This document shows, piece after piece, positions 1 through 15,200 of a stretch of DNA of 20,000 nucleotides. The DNA is taken from positions 53,793-73,792 of the IMG/VR virus record IMGVR_UViG_3300005527_000058; one strand, given 5' to 3'. The translations under genes were made by a program, and so were the position numbers. The stretch's first letter is position 1, and every line of letters begins with the position of its first letter. The notes below the pieces were generated by a model, which saw only the letters and a program-made list of their open reading frames with translations, did no database searches and had not been told where the DNA came from. Source of the stretch: an uncultured virus (IMG/VR IMGVR_UViG_3300005527_000058). Its lineage: Duplodnaviria; Heunggongvirae; Uroviricota; Caudoviricetes.

Positions 1-756
1 AGAAAAATCTAAATCATTGGTAATGTTAGTTTCTTTACCAAAATACCATAAGTTCCATAATACTGACCACATCTCAGCGGTCCAAAACTGAATCTCACCA
101 GGACTTATAGGGAATCTCTTTTGATAATTTAACATTTGGTCATATAATGGAACACAATCGTCATATATTTTTTTCCAAATTTCTGAATCAGTGTTTTTTA
201 TTATATATTGTCCTCCACCTGAATTAAGTTGATTACATTTAACACATTCAACGTCAATCCCAACAATATCAACCATTTCTTGAATTAACTGACCTTTTTC
301 GGAATTTGGGTGTTGTTTCTCATACCGTTCACAACAATCCATAATATAATTGTACCCAATATAACCTACAGTATCGGAAAGATAAATTACATCATCTCCC
401 ATTAATTTATCAAAGTCGGGTAACTCTCTAAAAATAATGTCAGCATCATGCAGAAAAAAAGATTTACCATATTCAGGATATTCTTCTAGCCATTTATAAA
501 TTAAAAACGGTTTAATGTTAGGGATATAATGTTTTTTTTCTCTCTCATCAACATAATGATGAACATTTATACCCATATCTTTTAAACGTAATGATTCTTC
601 ACTAGGTTCTTTTTTTCCGTGAACCATCGCTAAAAGAACGTGAATGTTATTTGGATTTATACCCTTTTCAATAAAATTATGTACGTAGACTTTTATTTGC
701 CAATGAAAATATGGAACATCAGGTTGTGCTGAAACAAATTTTAAATTATTAACCAT
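1..756 (-). CDS. GT-A fold glycosyltransferase resembling peptidyl-serine alpha-galactosyltransferase (GT96) / Hyp O-arabinosyltransferase (GT95); 3' end beyond window
   Basis: Hand translation from ATG at 756 gives 252 open codons to base 1: MVNNLKFVSAQPDVPYFHWQIKVYVHNF...HYIPNIKPFLIYKWLEEY...FFLHDADIIFRELPDF...NSGGGQYIIK...EIQFWTAEMWSVLWNLW...DLDFS. DxD (D104-A-D106) follows a hydrophobic strand. YFHWQ, YIPNIKP and WTAEMW occur in the same order as the YFDWQ, YPAINKP and WISEMY motifs I recall from plant SGT1. Confidence 0.8.
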   Translation of the reverse strand, partial: MVNNLKFVSAQPDVPYFHWQIKVYVHNFIEKGINPNNIHVLLAMVHGKKEPSEESLRLKDMGINVHHYVDEREKKHYIPNIKPFLIYKWLEEYPEYGKSFFLHDADIIFRELPDFDKLMGDDVIYLSDTVGYIGYNYIMDCCERYEKQHPNSEKGQLIQEMVDIVGIDVECVKCNQLNSGGGQYIIKNTDSEIWKKIYDDCVPLYDQMLNYQKRFPISPGEIQFWTAEMWSVLWNLWYFGKETNITNDLDFS

Positions 757-760
757 ATAG

Positions 761-790
761 GAAATATAATTCAGAAGTTTTTCTTATCAA
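761..790 (-). promoter_or_regulatory. Putative Bacteroidota-type housekeeping promoter (-33 TTG, 19-nt spacer, -7 TAnnTTT[G>C])
   Basis: Minus strand reads TTG(790-788)-ATAAGAAAAACTTCTGAAT (19 nt)-TATATTTC(768-761)-CTAT-ATG. This matches TTG-N19-TAnnTTTG except at the last base. It can also be read as sigma70-like TTGATA-N16-TATATT. Confidence 0.45.
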
Positions 791-799
791 CAATTTATT

Positions 800-1306
800 T
801 TAAGTGATGTAATTAAAATTGACGTATGATGTACCTTCAAAAGTTTCACCCATTATTAATACCATTATGTTTTTAATACAACACATAAATTCCGCCTCCA
901 TTGTTTGATATTCTTCGGCTATCGTTAAATCAAAACTACCATCCCCATAATCCACAGTGTAATTATAAGAAACCATAGTACCTCCACTTGTTGGTAAATT
1001 AATACTTTCATTTTGAACCCCTGTTTGTGGTGAACATTGCATCATGTTAAAAAACACTTGGAATTTTTTATGGTAATCAATGAAACATCCCTCCCAAAAA
1101 TCTTGGTATATTTTTTCTTGGTATACCTCACCACAAGTTTCACCTGAAGTACATGGTGTTGCAGCGTTTATAAATTGTTTTAATGCTTGGATGAATGCGT
1201 TTTTTGAATTATTAGCATATAAATATATATCCCCCCAAGTAGTACAATCAGACTCAGTAGTACCAGTCCCAATAATATTTCCGTTTAGATAATCACAAAT
1301 ATCCAT
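800..1306 (-). CDS. Hypothetical Cys-rich protein (168 aa, 8 Cys), probably fibre-associated (tip or chaperone)
   Basis: ATG start 11 nt after the stop of the SprB-repeat gene on the same strand; acidic and Cys-rich like the fibre C-terminus; no recognisable family. Confidence 0.7.
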   Translation of the reverse strand: MDICDYLNGNIIGTGTTESDCTTWGDIYLYANNSKNAFIQALKQFINAATPCTSGETCGEVYQEKIYQDFWEGCFIDYHKKFQVFFNMMQCSPQTGVQNESINLPTSGGTMVSYNYTVDYGDGSFDLTIAEEYQTMEAEFMCCIKNIMVLIMGETFEGTSYVNFNYIT

Positions 1307-1317
1307 ATAAATTATAT

Positions 1318-4194
1318 TTAACTATTATATTTAAAAATTTGGTATAATGGGATATGAAATGACGACCAAGTAAAAGACCTCCAAACCAACATAAGTTGGT
1401 TTAATGATAAAAGATAATAATCTCTTTGAGCTCTTTGTACCGCAGCACAATCTTCAATATCAGGATAACCTATTATTGGTGAACTTTCATTAATCCACGT
1501 ATTTGTATTAGGGTCCCATTTATAAAAAACACCATCGTCTATAACAAAACAAAATTCACCAAAATTACCTGTTAATGGTAAATCACCATATGATTGGACT
1601 TCAGTTAACCATACGATATCAAAGTCATATTGAGGCCCAACTAAACCATTTTCCTCAAATATTTTTTTACAACTACATCCTTGTATTACCTTGAATTGCG
1701 TCCACCCAACATTTTCAGGCCCATTGTAAAAATAATCACCCTCGTATCTAGATGGTGGTAATACAACAGGAATGGATTGGGCATAACTAATTCTACCCAC
1801 TGAAAGGGCTAAAAGATAATTATTTATATAAGACAAATAGGCATTTCTAGCATTTCTAAACTCAATTTGTTTACTCTCAATAACACCGCAATCAGGATAA
1901 TTTGGTAACTCTTGACATCTAGTAGGTATAATATCCAAATTGTCTAATAAATCAATTCCAAATAAAGGCCATTTAATATCATAGATTACTTTAGTTTCTT
2001 CGGTTTCACAATACTCTTCAGTTATTTCACAATTAATAGGGGTAAATTCAGGTACGGGACAATAACAAGCGACACACGAAATATCGTAATGAATTATCAT
2101 ATTAATTATAATATTAGCATCATTTAATGAAATTTCGGAATTACAATCAGTTAAAATAGTCATTTGATTAGTTTCAATATCAAAAATAACAGAACCAATA
2201 CCATCATACCCTAATATTAAACTTCCAATAACATCATTCCATTGTTGGGTAGTTGGGTAATCATTTAAAGTTTCTCCCGTAAAAAATGTTTGGGTTGTGG
2301 TAACTCCGCTAACTGTAACGGATGCTTCAAATATAGCCTGATTCAAAATACAATTTGTATCCCCCGAACTTAAACTATAAAACCCATCAAGTAACATCTG
2401 TTTAGGTCCTTTTAAAATTATTTCACCATAATTTAATAAGTCAGAATCACAAACGCTATAAACTTGATAAGATGATAATAAAACATTACCATTAACTATA
2501 ACTTCCGTAGTTGACTCACACCCATTGTCATCAACAACAGTCAATGAGTAGGTTCCAGCACTTAACCCCGTTATAGTTGACCCTGTTTGTCCGCTAGCGT
2601 TTGGGCTCCAAGTTAATGTGAATGGTGGTTCTCCACTAGTTATTAACGCTGTTACTGAACCATTATTACCCCCTAAAGCATCGGTCGGTACTAAAATAAA
2701 ATCAACATCACTTGATGTTGCCACATTTGCCGATATTGTTTGGGTACACCCATTATCATCCACAACATTTATACTATGTAATCCTGATGTTAGATTAGTA
2801 AAAGTTACCGAACTTAAAGGACTAATAACAATTTCACTACCATCTAAAGTATATGTGTAAGAAGGTGTTCCTCCTGAAACTTCAACAGTTATTATCCCAT
2901 TATCATCACCACAAGTAGTACCTGTAACACTTGTTGACAAAATAAACGCATTATCATTCTCAATTGTGAAGGTATTACTATATTCACAAGGACCATCGTC
3001 AGATATTGTTAAAGTATATTCACCGTAGAATAAATTATTAAAGGTCCAAGTTGAACTATTTGTTGTTTGCGTTGTAGTTGGCCCACCTGTTTCACTTAAA
3101 GTGTAGTTGTAAGGTGGTGACCCTCCATTCAATACTATCGTGACATATCCAGATGCCCCACATACCGTTGGAGAATACGAAAACGATACAACCGAAAATC
3201 CTCCTGGAGTTGTGACCGTTATTGTTGCACTTGTAGTACAAAGTCCCGCATCAGTCACTAATATACTATAATTCCCACTAGATACATTAGTAAATGTGTA
3301 TTCAGTGTCAAATGTAAAGTAATTACCTAATGTTGAGGCGGAGAAGTTATACGGTGAAGTACCGCCCGTAACAATAACAGTAATTTCACCATCCGAAGAA
3401 TAACAAGATGGGTCTGTTGTTAAAATAGACGCAATACCTACACTAGGTACTTCTGAAACTGAAGTTACTTTATTAACCGCACACCCTGTACTATCAGTTA
3501 CCGTAACATTATAAAACCCTGCGGTTAATCCACTAATACTTGATGTTGTTTGACCATTAGACCATAAATAAGTGTACGGAGGATTACCCGTTAACCCTGT
3601 TATAAATATTTTACCTGAATTAACCGCACATCCCGCATCATTAACAACATAAAAACCAAAATCTATGGTACTTGAGTCTTTAATTATAACAGATTCACTT
3701 TGACCTGTACAACCACCACCATCATTAGCAATTACATAATATGTACTTGCGGATAAATTAGTAAACTGATAAGAATTACCAGCGGTTGATGCTGACATTA
3801 TAAAACCATAAACAGAATCATACAATGAAAAAGTTGCTGTCCCATAATACCCACTTGTAACAGCACTTAAAGAACCATTATTCTCACCACATAAAGTATC
3901 TTCAAACGATTCAATAGATACACAAGTCCCACTTGATATATAAACATTAACAGGAACTACTGTATTAGGTTCACAACTATCTATAATATTAAATGTGTAA
4001 GTCGCGGCAGATAATCCACTCTCACTATATGTTGTAACCCCAGGTCCTAAAGCAATTGTACCATAAGATGCAGGACTAATCCATTGTATTGTATAATCAG
4101 GTGCCGTACCAAGAATACTAAGTTCAAAAGTCCCAACATTTATATTAGAACAATCACCTGTTATATTTAAACTATATGATAAAGGACAAGACAT
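1318..4194 (-). CDS. SprB-repeat tail fibre/adhesin-like structural protein (958 aa)
   Basis: Seven ~80-aa repeats with consensus C..xxG.I.V..GGxxPY.Y.W/L....F/I.xL.xG.Y.V.V.D.xGC (e.g. GNPPYTYLWSNGQTTSSISGLTAGFYNVTVTDSTGC). Then a ~95-aa domain shared with the upstream gene, a Cys cluster, and a fibre-type motif GDLPLTGNFGEFCFVIDDGVFYKWDPNTNTW. No signal peptide. Start overlaps the upstream stop (TAATG). Confidence 0.8.
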   Translation of the reverse strand: MSCPLSYSLNITGDCSNINVGTFELSILGTAPDYTIQWISPASYGTIALGPGVTTYSESGLSAATYTFNIIDSCEPNTVVPVNVYISSGTCVSIESFEDTLCGENNGSLSAVTSGYYGTATFSLYDSVYGFIMSASTAGNSYQFTNLSASTYYVIANDGGGCTGQSESVIIKDSSTIDFGFYVVNDAGCAVNSGKIFITGLTGNPPYTYLWSNGQTTSSISGLTAGFYNVTVTDSTGCAVNKVTSVSEVPSVGIASILTTDPSCYSSDGEITVIVTGGTSPYNFSASTLGNYFTFDTEYTFTNVSSGNYSILVTDAGLCTTSATITVTTPGGFSVVSFSYSPTVCGASGYVTIVLNGGSPPYNYTLSETGGPTTTQTTNSSTWTFNNLFYGEYTLTISDDGPCEYSNTFTIENDNAFILSTSVTGTTCGDDNGIITVEVSGGTPSYTYTLDGSEIVISPLSSVTFTNLTSGLHSINVVDDNGCTQTISANVATSSDVDFILVPTDALGGNNGSVTALITSGEPPFTLTWSPNASGQTGSTITGLSAGTYSLTVVDDNGCESTTEVIVNGNVLLSSYQVYSVCDSDLLNYGEIILKGPKQMLLDGFYSLSSGDTNCILNQAIFEASVTVSGVTTTQTFFTGETLNDYPTTQQWNDVIGSLILGYDGIGSVIFDIETNQMTILTDCNSEISLNDANIIINMIIHYDISCVACYCPVPEFTPINCEITEEYCETEETKVIYDIKWPLFGIDLLDNLDIIPTRCQELPNYPDCGVIESKQIEFRNARNAYLSYINNYLLALSVGRISYAQSIPVVLPPSRYEGDYFYNGPENVGWTQFKVIQGCSCKKIFEENGLVGPQYDFDIVWLTEVQSYGDLPLTGNFGEFCFVIDDGVFYKWDPNTNTWINESSPIIGYPDIEDCAAVQRAQRDYYLLSLNQLMLVWRSFTWSSFHIPLYQIFKYNS
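2488..4194 (-). repeat. Seven tandem, diverged SprB-type protein repeats (protein-level only)
   Basis: Repeat ends: IIDSC, ANDGGGC, VTDSTGC, VTDAGLC, ISDDGPC, VVDDNGC, VVDDNGC, each preceded by a G/N-L/V-x-x-G/A/S-x-Y/H strand. Confidence 0.85.
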
Positions 4195-10476: not shown

Positions 10477-12280
10477 AATCGTCAACAGTTGGTTCCGCAA
10501 CTACGGTATTATTTGTTATCCCATAATCATAAGTATCCCCTTCACTAATTAATCTGAAAATAATATCTCTATATGGGTAGTGGGCGTTATTTAAATATGG
10601 ATAATTAACCCCAACATTTTCAGTGTCAATAAACCCATATGGGTATAAATCCCTCCAAATAAATTGGTTAACTGTCGTAGAGTAATAAGCATAATCAGGT
10701 ATACCTACAACATTTTGGCTATCAGCTTCTTCAAGATAATTAGAGAACGCCCTTATTTTTAAAGGATAGTGTGGCTTATAATAGTAACCACGACAATTAT
10801 CACCAAATGGGTTTGAGTCAGGAGTTAGTCCAATATTAAAATAATAAGGATTAAACCTAAATTTATGATATAAATCAGAAATAACTCTTTCAGTTTGTTC
10901 CGAGTTATTCCACTCACAGTAATCTCCTAAAACTATATCTCCCTTTTGTACTGGTCTTATATATGTAAATGGTTTTCCAGGTATTCCTAATGTAGTTGTA
11001 TAATTTAAAACCGAAAATCCCGCATCTGAATTCGTGTTAGAATTAGCCCACCAATTATTAGGTGCGTTAGGGTTGGTACTTAATGGTTGTATATTAAATT
11101 CCCATCCTTGTTTTAATCCATAATAACCACCACCAGGTCTTAACAAACCAAAAGTCCAACCCATATAACCTTTCCACACTATAGTGTAAAATAATTCACT
11201 TAAGGGTCTATTTTGATTATCTCTTAATGATGAAATGTCAATGTCTTCATTAAATGAGGCCGTATACACAGTATTACCATTTTTTAATGATATTCTACTT
11301 TGTTTATTTGGTGTATAGGTTGCCCTTTCATTCTTTTTTTGTTGTTTAAATATCTGTTGCTCAAATCCTGATTTACCTAATACTAAATCATCACTTTCAG
11401 TTAAAATTTTATGTCTTCTAACATAATATTCCGAAATAGTATCACCACTATTATTAATATCAATTATTCTTTTAAAAGTACCCGTCACACCACTTACAAA
11501 TGTGGTACCTGTAAATCCAATATCATAAATATTAAAAATATATTCATCAGTCCCATAGTATGGGTCACCTAACGAATATACTTGGAACGTATCTTGACCT
11601 AAATAATCAATACTTAATTTAACATATTCCCCAACTGAAAGTCCGTGAGTTATAGGGCACCTAAATGAAATAACTGTCTGATTTTGGTCCATGGTTCTAT
11701 AAACAACAAATGGTATTCCATCAGATGCCACCCAATTTAAAGTAGTGTTAGAATCTTTATCAAATGCGGACATTTGTTTATTTTTAATGTTATCATACGC
11801 ATAACTCATGTTAATGGACCAATTATATGTGTCAGCACTTTTATTAATAAAAAATTTATGTATGTTATTGGTAACATCAGGAGAAGTATAACCTGAGATA
11901 TCATTATCAATCCTCATAAAATCAAATTCATAATATTGAGGATATCCCGAATAAAGACTTATTGAGCTTAATGTACAAATATTCGTAACTAATGATTGTA
12001 CATTTTCATAATACAATGATGATTTATATGGATAATATGATGTAACACCAGAATATTTGTTATCAAACAATAATGATAATTTAGCAATAGGTCTGAATAT
12101 TGTTGACCTTTGTCTTTCGTCGTCATATAACTGCTGTAAATCAAAATTGATAGTTCTATCAAATTCAATATTTTCTTTAACCGTCTGTACTAACGGTACT
12201 TGAAATAATAAGTTGCTATTAGGTGCTGACTTGTACCTTAAAGACCCCAATACTACTCTATCTTCTATTCTACTACTCAT
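10469..12280 (-). CDS. Hypothetical phage baseplate/tail structural protein (603 aa)
   Basis: Long ORF, TAATG-coupled to the 1631-aa gene; aromatic/beta-rich; THGLSVGEYVKL resembles the HGLxxGD beta-barrel motif common in phage tail proteins. Confidence 0.72.
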   Translation of the reverse strand: MSSRIEDRVVLGSLRYKSAPNSNLLFQVPLVQTVKENIEFDRTINFDLQQLYDDERQRSTIFRPIAKLSLLFDNKYSGVTSYYPYKSSLYYENVQSLVTNICTLSSISLYSGYPQYYEFDFMRIDNDISGYTSPDVTNNIHKFFINKSADTYNWSINMSYAYDNIKNKQMSAFDKDSNTTLNWVASDGIPFVVYRTMDQNQTVISFRCPITHGLSVGEYVKLSIDYLGQDTFQVYSLGDPYYGTDEYIFNIYDIGFTGTTFVSGVTGTFKRIIDINNSGDTISEYYVRRHKILTESDDLVLGKSGFEQQIFKQQKKNERATYTPNKQSRISLKNGNTVYTASFNEDIDISSLRDNQNRPLSELFYTIVWKGYMGWTFGLLRPGGGYYGLKQGWEFNIQPLSTNPNAPNNWWANSNTNSDAGFSVLNYTTTLGIPGKPFTYIRPVQKGDIVLGDYCEWNNSEQTERVISDLYHKFRFNPYYFNIGLTPDSNPFGDNCRGYYYKPHYPLKIRAFSNYLEEADSQNVVGIPDYAYYSTTVNQFIWRDLYPYGFIDTENVGVNYPYLNNAHYPYRDIIFRLISEGDTYDYGITNNTVVAEPTVDDCE

Positions 12281-15200
12281 TAATATGTTATATCATCAAA
12301 ATCTACCCAAGATTCTGCAAATTTATCAAAGGCCGTTCTACCTTGTCTTAAACCAAAATAAAAATAAAAAGGAGCTCCCATTAAAATTGATTGTTGAGGT
12401 GCCGTTGGTTTGTACCAATAAGAGACATCAGCGTCAATGTTACCTGAAGAATTCACCGCATATATATATCCTTTAAAATAATCAGTTTGGTTAAAATTAT
12501 TAGGTCTAAAATATCTAGACGATTGTAATAATCTATCTAAGTCTTGATATCTGTGAGAAAATAATTCAGTTGAAAAATTTAAATTGGTATCCCAATTATT
12601 TATTTGTCCTCCAAATATTGTTGGTTTATTCGCAATAGACCACATGTAGAATGGTACTCTTTGACTAAAAACAGGAATGTCTTCAAGAGCACAATTTATT
12701 GTACTAAAAGGACCTATACCCGAATAAATATTTCTTTTAGGTGTGATATAATCTCTAGCCTGCAAATTAGATTTAAAGAACACACCAATAACATTATTAA
12801 CTCCAAAAATTTGAGAATATGAATAAATATCATTACCACCATAATACCCTTGTTCAAACGGATACACCCCAAACTGAGAGTTAGTGGCTATTAATTGAGC
12901 ATAATCACCGTCAACAAAATCATTATCCCTTTTAAAATAAGACAATACACCACCAAAATTAAGTGTATTAACTAATCTAGCTACAACTAACAAAGTTAAT
13001 AAATCGCTAATATCATTAAATGTTGTGGGTGATAATCTATTTAAAATATAACCGTCATACTCATTTGTAATTGATACTTCTTGTAAATATTTTTGTTTAG
13101 GTCCTAAATCCATAATTGTGGTAGGGAACATCATATTAACAACGTTACCTTTGTATTCATTATAGTCAGGTGCCTCTCTACCTATAAACTTATTAGTGTA
13201 AGTGTATGGTGCACTTCTATAAAAGAAATTATTATTAGTTTGGTCTAAGTATATTACATCAGTACAATAAACAGCGTATGGGTCATTATTATTATCAAAA
13301 AATGTATTATTTTTAAACGGGAAGTGATATAAAACACCATTCACCCAATTGTTTGTGAATACATGACCAAATACGTTTTGACATACACCATACATAGTTG
13401 TATTTCTAGCAAACCATTCAACCATATAAAATAAATCTATAGGTAATGAAAGCAAAGGTGTTCTAAGGAAAACATAACAACCATCTTCCATAGTTGGTTG
13501 CCCTAATGTGGTATAACAATTATCACCAGGAGGTGCTATGGTTATTTGACCATCACTCTCACTATAACAACCTAAAGGAACCATATTTTCACATTCAAAA
13601 GAACCTAAAATATCATTACCAACAATATTACCCCACCCATCATCAGATAAATCTTGACCACCACCATCAGTATATAGTGAATTAGTAATATCAAAAGTGG
13701 TTAACACACCACCAGAATCAAAACCATAAACAACCAAACTACCATTTTCAAAAAGAACATATTGATTTGTTAAATTACTTTGAGTTGTTGTAGAAGAGGG
13801 TAATCTGTCAGACCTCATAACCATCTGTCTACCAGATGGTCCTAATGTAAAACTAGTTGTTAATGTTGTTGGGTATATTGTTGAGTATACTTGTGAGGTT
13901 GATGTTGGGTTTGCCACAGGTATTAATGGGATTGTAGCGTCTAAATAAAGTAGTGAGCCACCCTCAACTTGTTCATTAATTAGGTATCCTCTGTTCTGAA
14001 CAACTGATGAGTTAAATGTCGGTGTAAACCCTGTACAAGATGGTCCAAGTATTGTTGAGTTATTCCATTCTTTAGTCATTTCATTTAATGGATTAACACT
14101 TAACCCATTATTAGGTGAAATTAATGTTGAGTTTGTTGGTGTTAATGGTTGAGACGCTTCATCAAGGTTTGAATAATACTTAGTCATCGTACTTGTAAAT
14201 GCACTGAACTGTCCTCCAGGTAAAAATTGGTAAGAGTCATAAAATAATTTTTGTCCTGAGTATGCGTCGGTTGCATAACTATTAGATATAATCAACGGTG
14301 AATCGTGTTTAACATTCCTTAATTTACCTTGTATTGGTATATTAAGATAGAAGTCACCCTCAACAATAGAACTCGCATTTCCAAATGACGAATAACCATA
14401 AAGTTTACTTAAATCATATCTACATTTTGTTTTAGTTGTATTTGGGTCAACTCCTCTAACTAAAAATATAATATTTTGTTCATTATACCCCGAATAACAA
14501 GATACAGGTGACAAAGTATCGGGAATCATACAATTATCATCATCAATTGTTAAATAATACGCAGGGTTCTTAATAAAACGTTCAGGTAATGAATCAGGTA
14601 ATAAATTGGTAGAATCCGTAATAAAGTTGGATACTTTTTTTATTTGTAAAACTTGGAAATACTCAATATCCATAGGATATTTAGCATATAACACATCTTC
14701 AGTAAATGCGGTTAATGTATAGGTTACCGATAAATTACCAGTGTTTGAGGGTGATGCGTATTCAACAACTCTATTATATTGATTAATATTTGAAAATGCT
14801 GTAGGGGTACCTATCGTTGTTCCTGTTATCGCATTATTACTATAAATATTTAAAGTTGAACCCGTTAAATTTGGGTCATTAGATATTGTAGGGTTATTAA
14901 ATGTTAATACTTTTCCTACTTGGAACTTGCTGATGTTTTTATCATCTACAACTAAACAAACCACATTATCTAAATGCCAAGTAGTGTTGGGGTTATTGAT
15001 ATTAGTATCAAAGGTTACTTTAATTTGATTAACCCCTCCACCTGGTGATATCGTTGGGTCAAAATATTTACCCTTAGTATTAAATAAATTCATTCTATTC
15101 GCCAAAGTTAAACTTGAACTAAATAAGTATGATGGTGGTATAGTAACTAAATTAATTAACCCTTGTGATTTATTTGTAATTGAGGTATCTGAAAGTCCTG

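Follow-up and report, generated by a model that had tools for sequence, protein, structure and literature searches.

The window analysed here comprises 20,000 nucleotides and is the last 20 kb (positions 53793-73792) of a 73,792-base contig from an uncultured virus of the Caudoviricetes (IMG/VR record IMGVR_UViG_3300005527_000058; CheckV completeness, 25%). Its first bases carry, on the minus strand, most of a gene for a putative glycosyltransferase, which is considered below together with the poly-threonine tracts that occur in phage structural proteins encoded close to genes of this kind. The open reading frame (ORF) had been predicted from the letters of the window alone, and this was borne out: it starts with the ATG at position 756 and runs for 252 amino acids within the window. 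The complete gene occupies contig positions 53565-54548 and encodes 327 amino acids, with the last 75 codons (228 nucleotides) and the stop codon lying beyond window base 1 (contig 53565-53792). The motifs YFHWQ (residues 16-20), YIPNIKP (77-83), HDADIIF (103-109), and WTAEMW (225-230) are all present at the residues given in the original prediction, and constitute the conserved core of phrog_4417, a very large phage family without a name. They are not due to chance, since they are conserved across an alignment of 64 sequences whose identities to the query range from 29 to 84%. In this alignment, residues Y77, D106, Y132, Y137, G181, Q223, W230, F251, H268, G271, and Y314 are invariant, while Y16, W19, D104, W225, and M229 are conserved in at least 90% of the sequences. 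The predicted absence of a transmembrane segment and of a signal peptide also held, the maximal Kyte-Doolittle mean over 19 residues being 0.83, and residues 6-12 form the first beta strand of the structural model described below.

A predicted glycosyltransferase from a large phage family

The AlphaFold2 model of the transferase (predicted local distance difference test, pLDDT, 97.5; predicted template-modelling score, pTM, 0.94) is a single-domain GT-A glycosyltransferase with a Rossmann-like alpha/beta/alpha arrangement. A Foldseek search returned WbbM, UGGT, ABO transferases, LgtC, LARGE1, glycogenin, and XXYLT1 as top neighbours, with template-modelling scores of ca. 0.4-0.47. These are GT8-type retaining enzymes and their allies, GT8 being the closest; the capsid transferase A64R of virus PBCV-1 appeared in the same listing at 11.0. 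The H103-D104-A105-D106 sequence directly follows a strand formed by residues 99-102, which is the usual place of the DxD motif in GT-A enzymes, and the conserved C-terminal histidine, H268, fits the third metal ligand of GT8-type enzymes. Judging from conservation, H268 and Q223 would be the counterparts of, respectively, the metal-binding histidine and the catalytic-centre glutamine of LgtC. The model and its Foldseek neighbours thus speak for the soluble GT-A glycosyltransferase that had been proposed, and the gene product is predicted to be a soluble, cytoplasmic, metal-dependent enzyme of this fold, belonging to a very large unnamed phage family. Because the structural neighbours are GT8-type, a retaining mechanism would be expected.

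Searches of sequence libraries with the transferase yielded a match in PHROGs only (phrog_4417, 'unknown function', E = 5.4e-56). No match was found in Pfam (no family at E ≤ 10), NCBIfam, or PDB (no chain), and none of the 64 relatives matched a glycosyltransferase family at E ≤ 0.01, so that the GT8 sequence model, Glyco_transf_8, was also unmatched. The family profile gave only chance-level matches to PDB sequences: TAL-effector repeats at E = 0.0068, without a significant stretch, and GNPTAB at E = 0.18. The latter, a weak match to the catalytic domain of a GlcNAc-1-phosphotransferase, is what could be said for an enzyme that transfers a sugar-1-phosphate (Stealth/GNPT-like), or some other nucleotide-activated group, onto the threonine tracts described below; given that DxD and a C-terminal histidine make up the usual GT-A metal site, we regard this as improbable.

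Transfer of a sugar, on the other hand, agrees with the other glycosyltransferase domains to which members of the family are fused. Of 35 longer relatives, 22 were without Pfam domains; those of the remaining 13 included Glyco_transf_7C (four proteins), the GlcNAc-transferase domain PF11397 (three), GT2 (two), F5/8-type C (two), O-FucT (one), and radical S-adenosylmethionine (SAM)-SPASM (one), as well as a methyltransferase and a weak GT25 match. A further 23 still longer relatives (651-2000 amino acids) add GT1, GT2, GT6, and GT32 domains. A fusion of the transferase domain to a radical SAM and SPASM module recurs in five proteins of ca. 660 amino acids, which suggests further chemistry on the same peptide substrates.

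The family contains 1429 proteins when collected by a single-query search and 2632 when collected by profile; at 50% identity, there are 855 representatives. In IMG/VR, members occur in at least 594 stretches, and matches were also obtained in 77 of 50,697 GenBank phage records (tblastn; all below 60% identity) and in 128 stretches across 185,579 prokaryote species, each represented by one genome. The 77 phages have mostly Bacillota hosts, including Lactobacillus (23), Enterococcus (21), Staphylococcus (11), and Lactococcus (8). Among the family rows shown, a functional name was attached to a single fused Bacteroidota protein, which NCBI calls a 'GlcNAc-transferase family protein'.

The original prediction had likened the enzyme to plant glycosyltransferases of the GT95 (HPAT) and GT96 (SGT1) families. 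We take Pfam family PF23452 (HPAT; gathering cut-off, 23.9 bits) to represent the plant hydroxyproline O-arabinosyltransferases, CAZy family GT95. The PF23452 hidden Markov model (HMM) did not match the transferase or 64 + 11 of its relatives (lenient cut-offs), nor did it match the 35 fused forms (E ≤ 0.001), the contig itself (E ≤ 10), five enzyme-positive phage records, or the best 120 of the 2632 profile matches. The DUF7164 HMM also had no match on the contig. In a language-model Atlas, PF23452 is listed for a minority of the members in 19 of the 30 nearest named clusters, and genuine PF23452 members were therefore sought in bacteria. One, scoring 30.6 bits, is encoded in a Microthrix genome in which the transferase family is also represented, and two more, at 101 and 88 bits, came from a set of 401 Actinomycetota genomes. 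The motif order in these three actinobacterial proteins is YxxWQ, YxPxxxR, D/ExD, WxSDMW, and an invariant histidine followed by Tyr-Cys (HYC). Comparison of the transferase family profile with the three proteins by hhalign revealed a collinear match over 230 columns (E = 5.6e-5, probability 66%, with a thin template whose effective number of sequences is 1.7 and which contains no plant sequence), in which the columns of YxxWQ, YxP, DxD, WxxDMW, and the histidine are aligned. With the weakest PF23452 member alone, the hhalign probability was 48%, and BLASTP of the transferase against that protein gave E = 2e-5 over the first 97 residues.

The likeness to GT95 thus stands as a collinear profile match with the same motif order to bacterial PF23452 proteins, but not as a match to the HPAT model. 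In our view, the two families are probably remote homologues; this does not make the transferase an HPAT member, nor does it indicate a common acceptor. Hydroxyproline, the acceptor that the plant comparison had suggested, was not upheld: no prolyl hydroxylase or 2-oxoglutarate-dependent oxygenase was found in the 73.8-kb fragment (ca. 25% of the genome), and the data described below indicate poly-threonine instead. As for GT96, none of the 23 long profile matches (651-2000 amino acids; all metagenomic, phage, or bacterial) was named plant SGT1, which is weak evidence on that family. In an actinobacterial genome, the HPAT-family gene (1477-2337) is followed by a gene for a 415-amino-acid flavin adenine dinucleotide-type protein (2369-3616, plus strand), by eye presumably a uridine diphosphate-galactopyranose mutase. 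Plant HPAT enzymes use a furanosyl donor, and a mutase neighbour would fit such a donor. A deep-learning study of 2021 predicts that GT95 enzymes are GT-A-like in fold and that the fold of GT96 is a novel one (PMC8476585).

Poly-threonine tracts beside the transferase gene

The neighbourhood of the transferase gene was studied in nine cultured Bacillota phages chosen from different genera. In all nine, the homologue is located inside the head/tail operon, 0-2 genes past a structural gene. It follows the gene of the major tail/tube protein (directly or two genes on) in phiFL1A, RQ1, phiCTP1, 1706, and Iacchus; that of the capsid protein in iLp84, Planchet, and bIL285; and that of a structural protein identified by mass spectrometry in LP65. 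At least seven of the nine phages possess clear poly-threonine tags, the runs being present in tail, capsid, or small neighbouring proteins, and mostly at the extreme C-terminus. Thus, the tail protein of phiFL1A has a 21-residue T/S run at its C-terminus, and the capsid protein of the same phage ends with T5-x-T5-x-T7; the capsid and tail proteins of iLp84 both terminate in TTTTTTTSK, and the tail proteins of RQ1, phiCTP1, 1706, and bIL285 terminate in T6-T10. Small proteins consisting almost wholly of (T7-x-x-P) repeats (iLp84_8, Iacchus gp072, and an RQ1 ORF) are encoded beside the enzyme gene.

Homologues of three structural proteins were compared between phages that have the enzyme and phages that lack it. 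To verify absence of the enzyme, every record was scanned in its entirety with the family profile, for which the positive controls gave values of 1e-74 to 1e-99. In the case of the bIL285-type tail protein, the enzyme-positive phages bIL285 and 1706 are tagged (T9/T10), while a terminal T/S run of four or more residues was absent from all seven enzyme-negative homologues, which come from phages of Ruminococcus, Exiguobacterium, Streptococcus (three), Geobacillus, and Bacillus. The iLp84-type capsid protein is tagged in iLp84 and R9.1, and untagged in four of four enzyme-negative phages (phiS11, TP-778L, Powder, and CS266P4). The phiS11 protein, which is 54% identical to that of iLp84, stops at 'QAQVLA', while the iLp84 protein, after the homologous 'QAKVLV', adds PTTTTTTTSK. 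The tail protein of phiFL1A is tagged, and its five enzyme-negative homologues, SPP1 gp17.1 among them, are not. Summed over the three comparisons, a C-terminal tag was present in 5/5 enzyme-positive phages and in 0/16 enzyme-negative homologues. The transferase homologue of R9.1 (record positions 11438-12325, minus strand) contains one in-frame TGA, with the capsid protein still T7-tagged; the TGA may reflect recoding, an error in the sequence, or inactivation of the gene in the recent past.

Similar pairing was observed in uncultured phages. Among 80 loci nearest to the gene under study (62-100% identity; contigs of up to 318 kb), an ORF with a run of at least six threonines (T≥6) or with PT repeats was located within 4 kb at 55, mostly just downstream, as is the case here. 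A second set comprised 80 loci with 48-68% identity to a more remote member of the family, and 4-kb neighbourhoods were again inspected. Such an ORF was present at 70 loci; it was the directly upstream, same-strand ORF in 65, and was located downstream in only two. In a set of 80 loci from bacterial genomes (3-kb neighbourhoods), T≥6 runs were found at 44, at 38 of these in the form of same-strand C-terminal tags, and mixed S/T tracts were found at three more.

In the phage under study, the transferase gene belongs to a block of structural genes (Table 1). Every large gene in the window lies on the minus strand. The block is headed by baseplate wedge genes, which are followed by six large unnamed proteins, a 958-amino-acid SprB-repeat protein, a 168-amino-acid ORF, and the transferase, the 43-nucleotide spacer before it being exactly as predicted. 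The transferase had been thought to stand at the end of this module, which proved wrong: 27 nucleotides past its stop codon, on the same strand, begins the gene of a 285-amino-acid SprB-repeat protein, followed by that of an 811-amino-acid protein. Both of these fibre-like proteins contain threonine tracts, TTTTTTTSTTTS (T7ST3S) in the former and T9, T7, T7, T6, and T6 in the latter. T≥6 runs occur in five of the 77 ORFs of the contig; four of these lie downstream of the transferase at a distance of up to 12 kb, and the fifth (T6) is 21 kb away. A 695-amino-acid protein with a T6 run is encoded on the strand opposite to the transferase. The same 12 kb also includes the gene of a 1750-amino-acid (PT)n protein, which has no T≥6 run and, being mucin-like, is a candidate for a substrate or an adhesin.

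Table 1. Features of the locus (window positions, unless marked as contig positions)
Feature	Position	Strand	Remarks
Glycosyltransferase gene, first 252 of 327 codons	756..1	-	ATG at 756-754; runs off the window
AT-rich 43-nucleotide spacer between the upstream 168-amino-acid ORF and the transferase start	757..799	-	Without obvious Shine-Dalgarno sequence or T4-type late promoter motif
168-amino-acid Cys-rich ORF directly upstream of the transferase	800..1306	-	No Pfam or PHROGs match
958-amino-acid SprB-repeat fibre-like protein	1318..4194	-	PF13573 SprB, E = 2e-22; Thr 11.7%, Ser 11.5%, without long Thr run
Baseplate wedge genes: gp6/Baseplate_J-like, 612 amino acids, and gp25-like, 151 amino acids	17246..19544	-	Head the same-strand structural block
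1750-amino-acid protein with (PT)n repeats	contig 44112-49364	+	36% Thr; C-terminal Laminin_G_3/ConA-like lectin domain; 4 kb from the transferase

The T4 late-promoter motif, TATAAATA, is not enriched in the window (five matches versus 7.4 expected), and none of the matches is located in the spacer 5' of the transferase gene. For annotation of the fragment, PHROGs was run on 65 + 12 ORFs and Pfam on 39 + 12, the 26 ORFs omitted from Pfam being mostly named by PHROGs and otherwise short. A host among the Bacteroidota would agree with the SprB repeats, the G+C content of ca. 30%, and the missing Shine-Dalgarno sequence. Outside the window, at contig 11786-13159 and 24080-24988 (both minus strand), are genes for a protein resembling glutamine synthetase and for a complete DnaJ. 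A description of large aquatic 'moraphages' lists glutamine synthetase, DnaJ, and four core groups of putative glycosyltransferases, with Flavobacteriia as predicted hosts (PMC12619734). Since glutamine synthetase and DnaJ are common to these phages and our contig, the transferase may belong to one of the moraphage glycosyltransferase groups.

Two DNA methyltransferases are also encoded on the contig, and glycosylation of modified DNA bases is frequent among large T4-like phages. That the transferase would modify the phage DNA is nevertheless highly improbable: homologues occur in small temperate siphophages, always within head/tail operons, the 73.8-kb fragment yielded no hydroxymethylase, and the family co-varies with tags on proteins.

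Proposed acceptors and competing explanations

The genomic company of the family, in structural operons and next to poly-threonine, supports the original prediction that the phage glycosylates its own virion proteins, and indicates an acceptor which that prediction did not name. We consider it likely that the soluble enzyme O-glycosylates poly-threonine tracts of these proteins. The transferase would be made late, together with the structural proteins, and, using a nucleoside diphosphate-sugar of the host as a donor, would place the initiating sugar on threonine hydroxyls of the tracts while the particles are being assembled or earlier. The tags at the C-termini of the most abundant subunits would serve as acceptors in small siphophages, and tracts inside fibre-like proteins would do so in the large phage studied here, i.e., in the 285- and 811-amino-acid proteins directly downstream; the 1750-amino-acid (PT)n protein and the 695-amino-acid T6 protein, encoded on the other strand, would perhaps be further acceptors. 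The phage might benefit through shielding, stability, or adhesion. In a more general form, which we rate as an even proposition, this would be a widespread uncharacterised phage system composed of a single soluble initiating O-glycosyltransferase, an ancient relative of plant HPAT, and an encoded poly-threonine 'glyco-tag' on capsid, tail-tube, or fibre proteins, enzyme and tag being gained and lost together in phages whose hosts include Bacillota and Bacteroidota.

Several observations weigh against glycosylation of virion tracts. The proposal is built on sequence, a structural model, and gene context. The nearest solved structures include the polysaccharide and lipopolysaccharide enzymes WbbM and LgtC, and neither a second glycosyltransferase nor a nucleotide-sugar gene was seen in the 73.8-kb fragment, which is ca. 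25% of the genome. Only weak tags are present in Planchet (TTTSTT) and LP65 (TETQTQ repeats). The paired comparisons perhaps amount to three or four independent gains, not to 21 independent points, and near-duplicates are frequent in both uncultured sets, so that their counts are those of non-independent events. No T≥6 or PT-repeat tract was found within 4 kb at 25/80 loci of the own-lineage set and at 10/80 loci of the second set, and no Ser/Thr-rich tract was found within 3 kb at 33/80 bacterial loci.

The tracts could, in particular, be plain flexible linkers that travel with the structural genes, while the enzyme acts on some other protein of the host or the phage. Threonine-rich linkers are frequent in fibre proteins, and, besides the 25 own-lineage loci without tracts, this explanation can draw on solved relatives that are protein-directed and have other acceptors, namely glycogenin, the Skp1 transferase GlaT1, and UGGT. 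We nonetheless think it unlikely, since tags are appended past the homologous core, and only in phages that have the enzyme (iLp84 versus phiS11 capsid), and since a tag at the extreme end of a protein links nothing.

The tract-less bacterial loci bear on a further explanation, to which we assign a small, though slightly higher, probability: the enzyme would modify an envelope glycan of the host (the O-antigen, a teichoic acid, or the capsule), which might, for instance, prevent superinfection, and the location of its gene next to those of structural proteins would be incidental. These 33 loci are mostly from Chitinophaga, Pedobacter, Mucilaginibacter, Elizabethkingia, and Acidimicrobiia; at several of them the transferase domain is part of a longer, multi-domain ORF of 550-610 amino acids, at the start of which it is located in Chitinophaga, Mucilaginibacter, and similar genomes. 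The fusions to GT2 and GT1 domains, typical of polysaccharide synthesis, and the presence of LgtC and WbbM among the structural neighbours point in the same direction. On the other side, the transferase has no transmembrane segment or membrane anchor, the gene is in a late head/tail operon, rather than in a lysogenic-conversion module, in 9/9 cultured phages, and the enzyme co-varies with poly-threonine tags (5/5 versus 0/16). The tract-less Bacteroidota branch may have a different substrate. Because of the 33 loci, pairing of the enzyme with poly-threonine is not a rule for the whole family; it is strong in Bacillota phages and in the aquatic lineage of the phage studied here.

Glycosylated phage particles have been established experimentally for few phages, mycobacteriophages foremost. 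If glycosylation of virion poly-threonine holds true, virion glycosylation would be a common phage trait, extending to phages of lactic acid bacteria, enterococci, and staphylococci and to large aquatic phages. It would then matter for how antibodies and the defence sensors of bacteria recognise phage proteins, for particle stability, and for the reading of unresolved C-terminal tails in cryo-electron microscopy maps. The compact, portable pair of enzyme and tag could also serve as a tool for adding sugars to proteins in bacteria.

Relation to known glycosylation systems

The GT8-type enzymes (glycogenin, LgtC, Dictyostelium Skp1 alpha-galactosyltransferase GlaT1, and Streptococcus pneumoniae GlyE, as well as UGGT of GT24 and WbbM) resemble the phage transferase in having a DxD motif after the fourth strand and a conserved C-terminal histidine, and four of them, glycogenin, GlaT1, GlyE, and UGGT, act on proteins. 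They differ from it in that there is no match at the sequence level (6-13% identity in structural alignments), that the phage enzyme is ca. 60-100 residues longer than GT8 cores, and that its proposed acceptor is poly-threonine. With HPAT/GT95, the phage enzyme has in common the order of the YxxWQ, YxP, D/ExD, WxxDMW, and histidine motifs. Plant HPAT enzymes start the glycosylation of extensins; the phage transferase lacks their type-II membrane anchor, and threonine, rather than hydroxyproline, is its indicated acceptor. The giant-virus capsid transferases, such as A64R of PBCV-1, are further removed: the structural match is weaker than that to GT8, there is no sequence similarity, and the virus is a eukaryotic one. 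The glycans of the PBCV-1 capsid are of the N-linked type.

A literature search returned nothing in which poly-threonine tags were connected with glycosylation and with the structural proteins of phages; the glycosylation treated in PMC9863714 is that of the host wall only, and the available text of PMC13419713 contains no passage on glycosylation. A precedent lies in mycobacteriophages, where, as cited in PMC12619734 and PMC11600133, glycosylation of virions by phage enzymes is established and the modification is at the C-termini of capsid and tail-tube subunits. The putative system described here depends on a different family of enzymes, with no Mycobacterium phage among the 77 matching records. 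While three tandem transferases and a methyltransferase are reported for the mycobacteriophage system, there is usually a single enzyme here; the hosts are Bacillota, Bacteroidota, and others, and the poly-threonine tag is genetically obvious. In location, the tags found here correspond to the mycobacteriophage modification, being C-terminal and on capsid and tail proteins.

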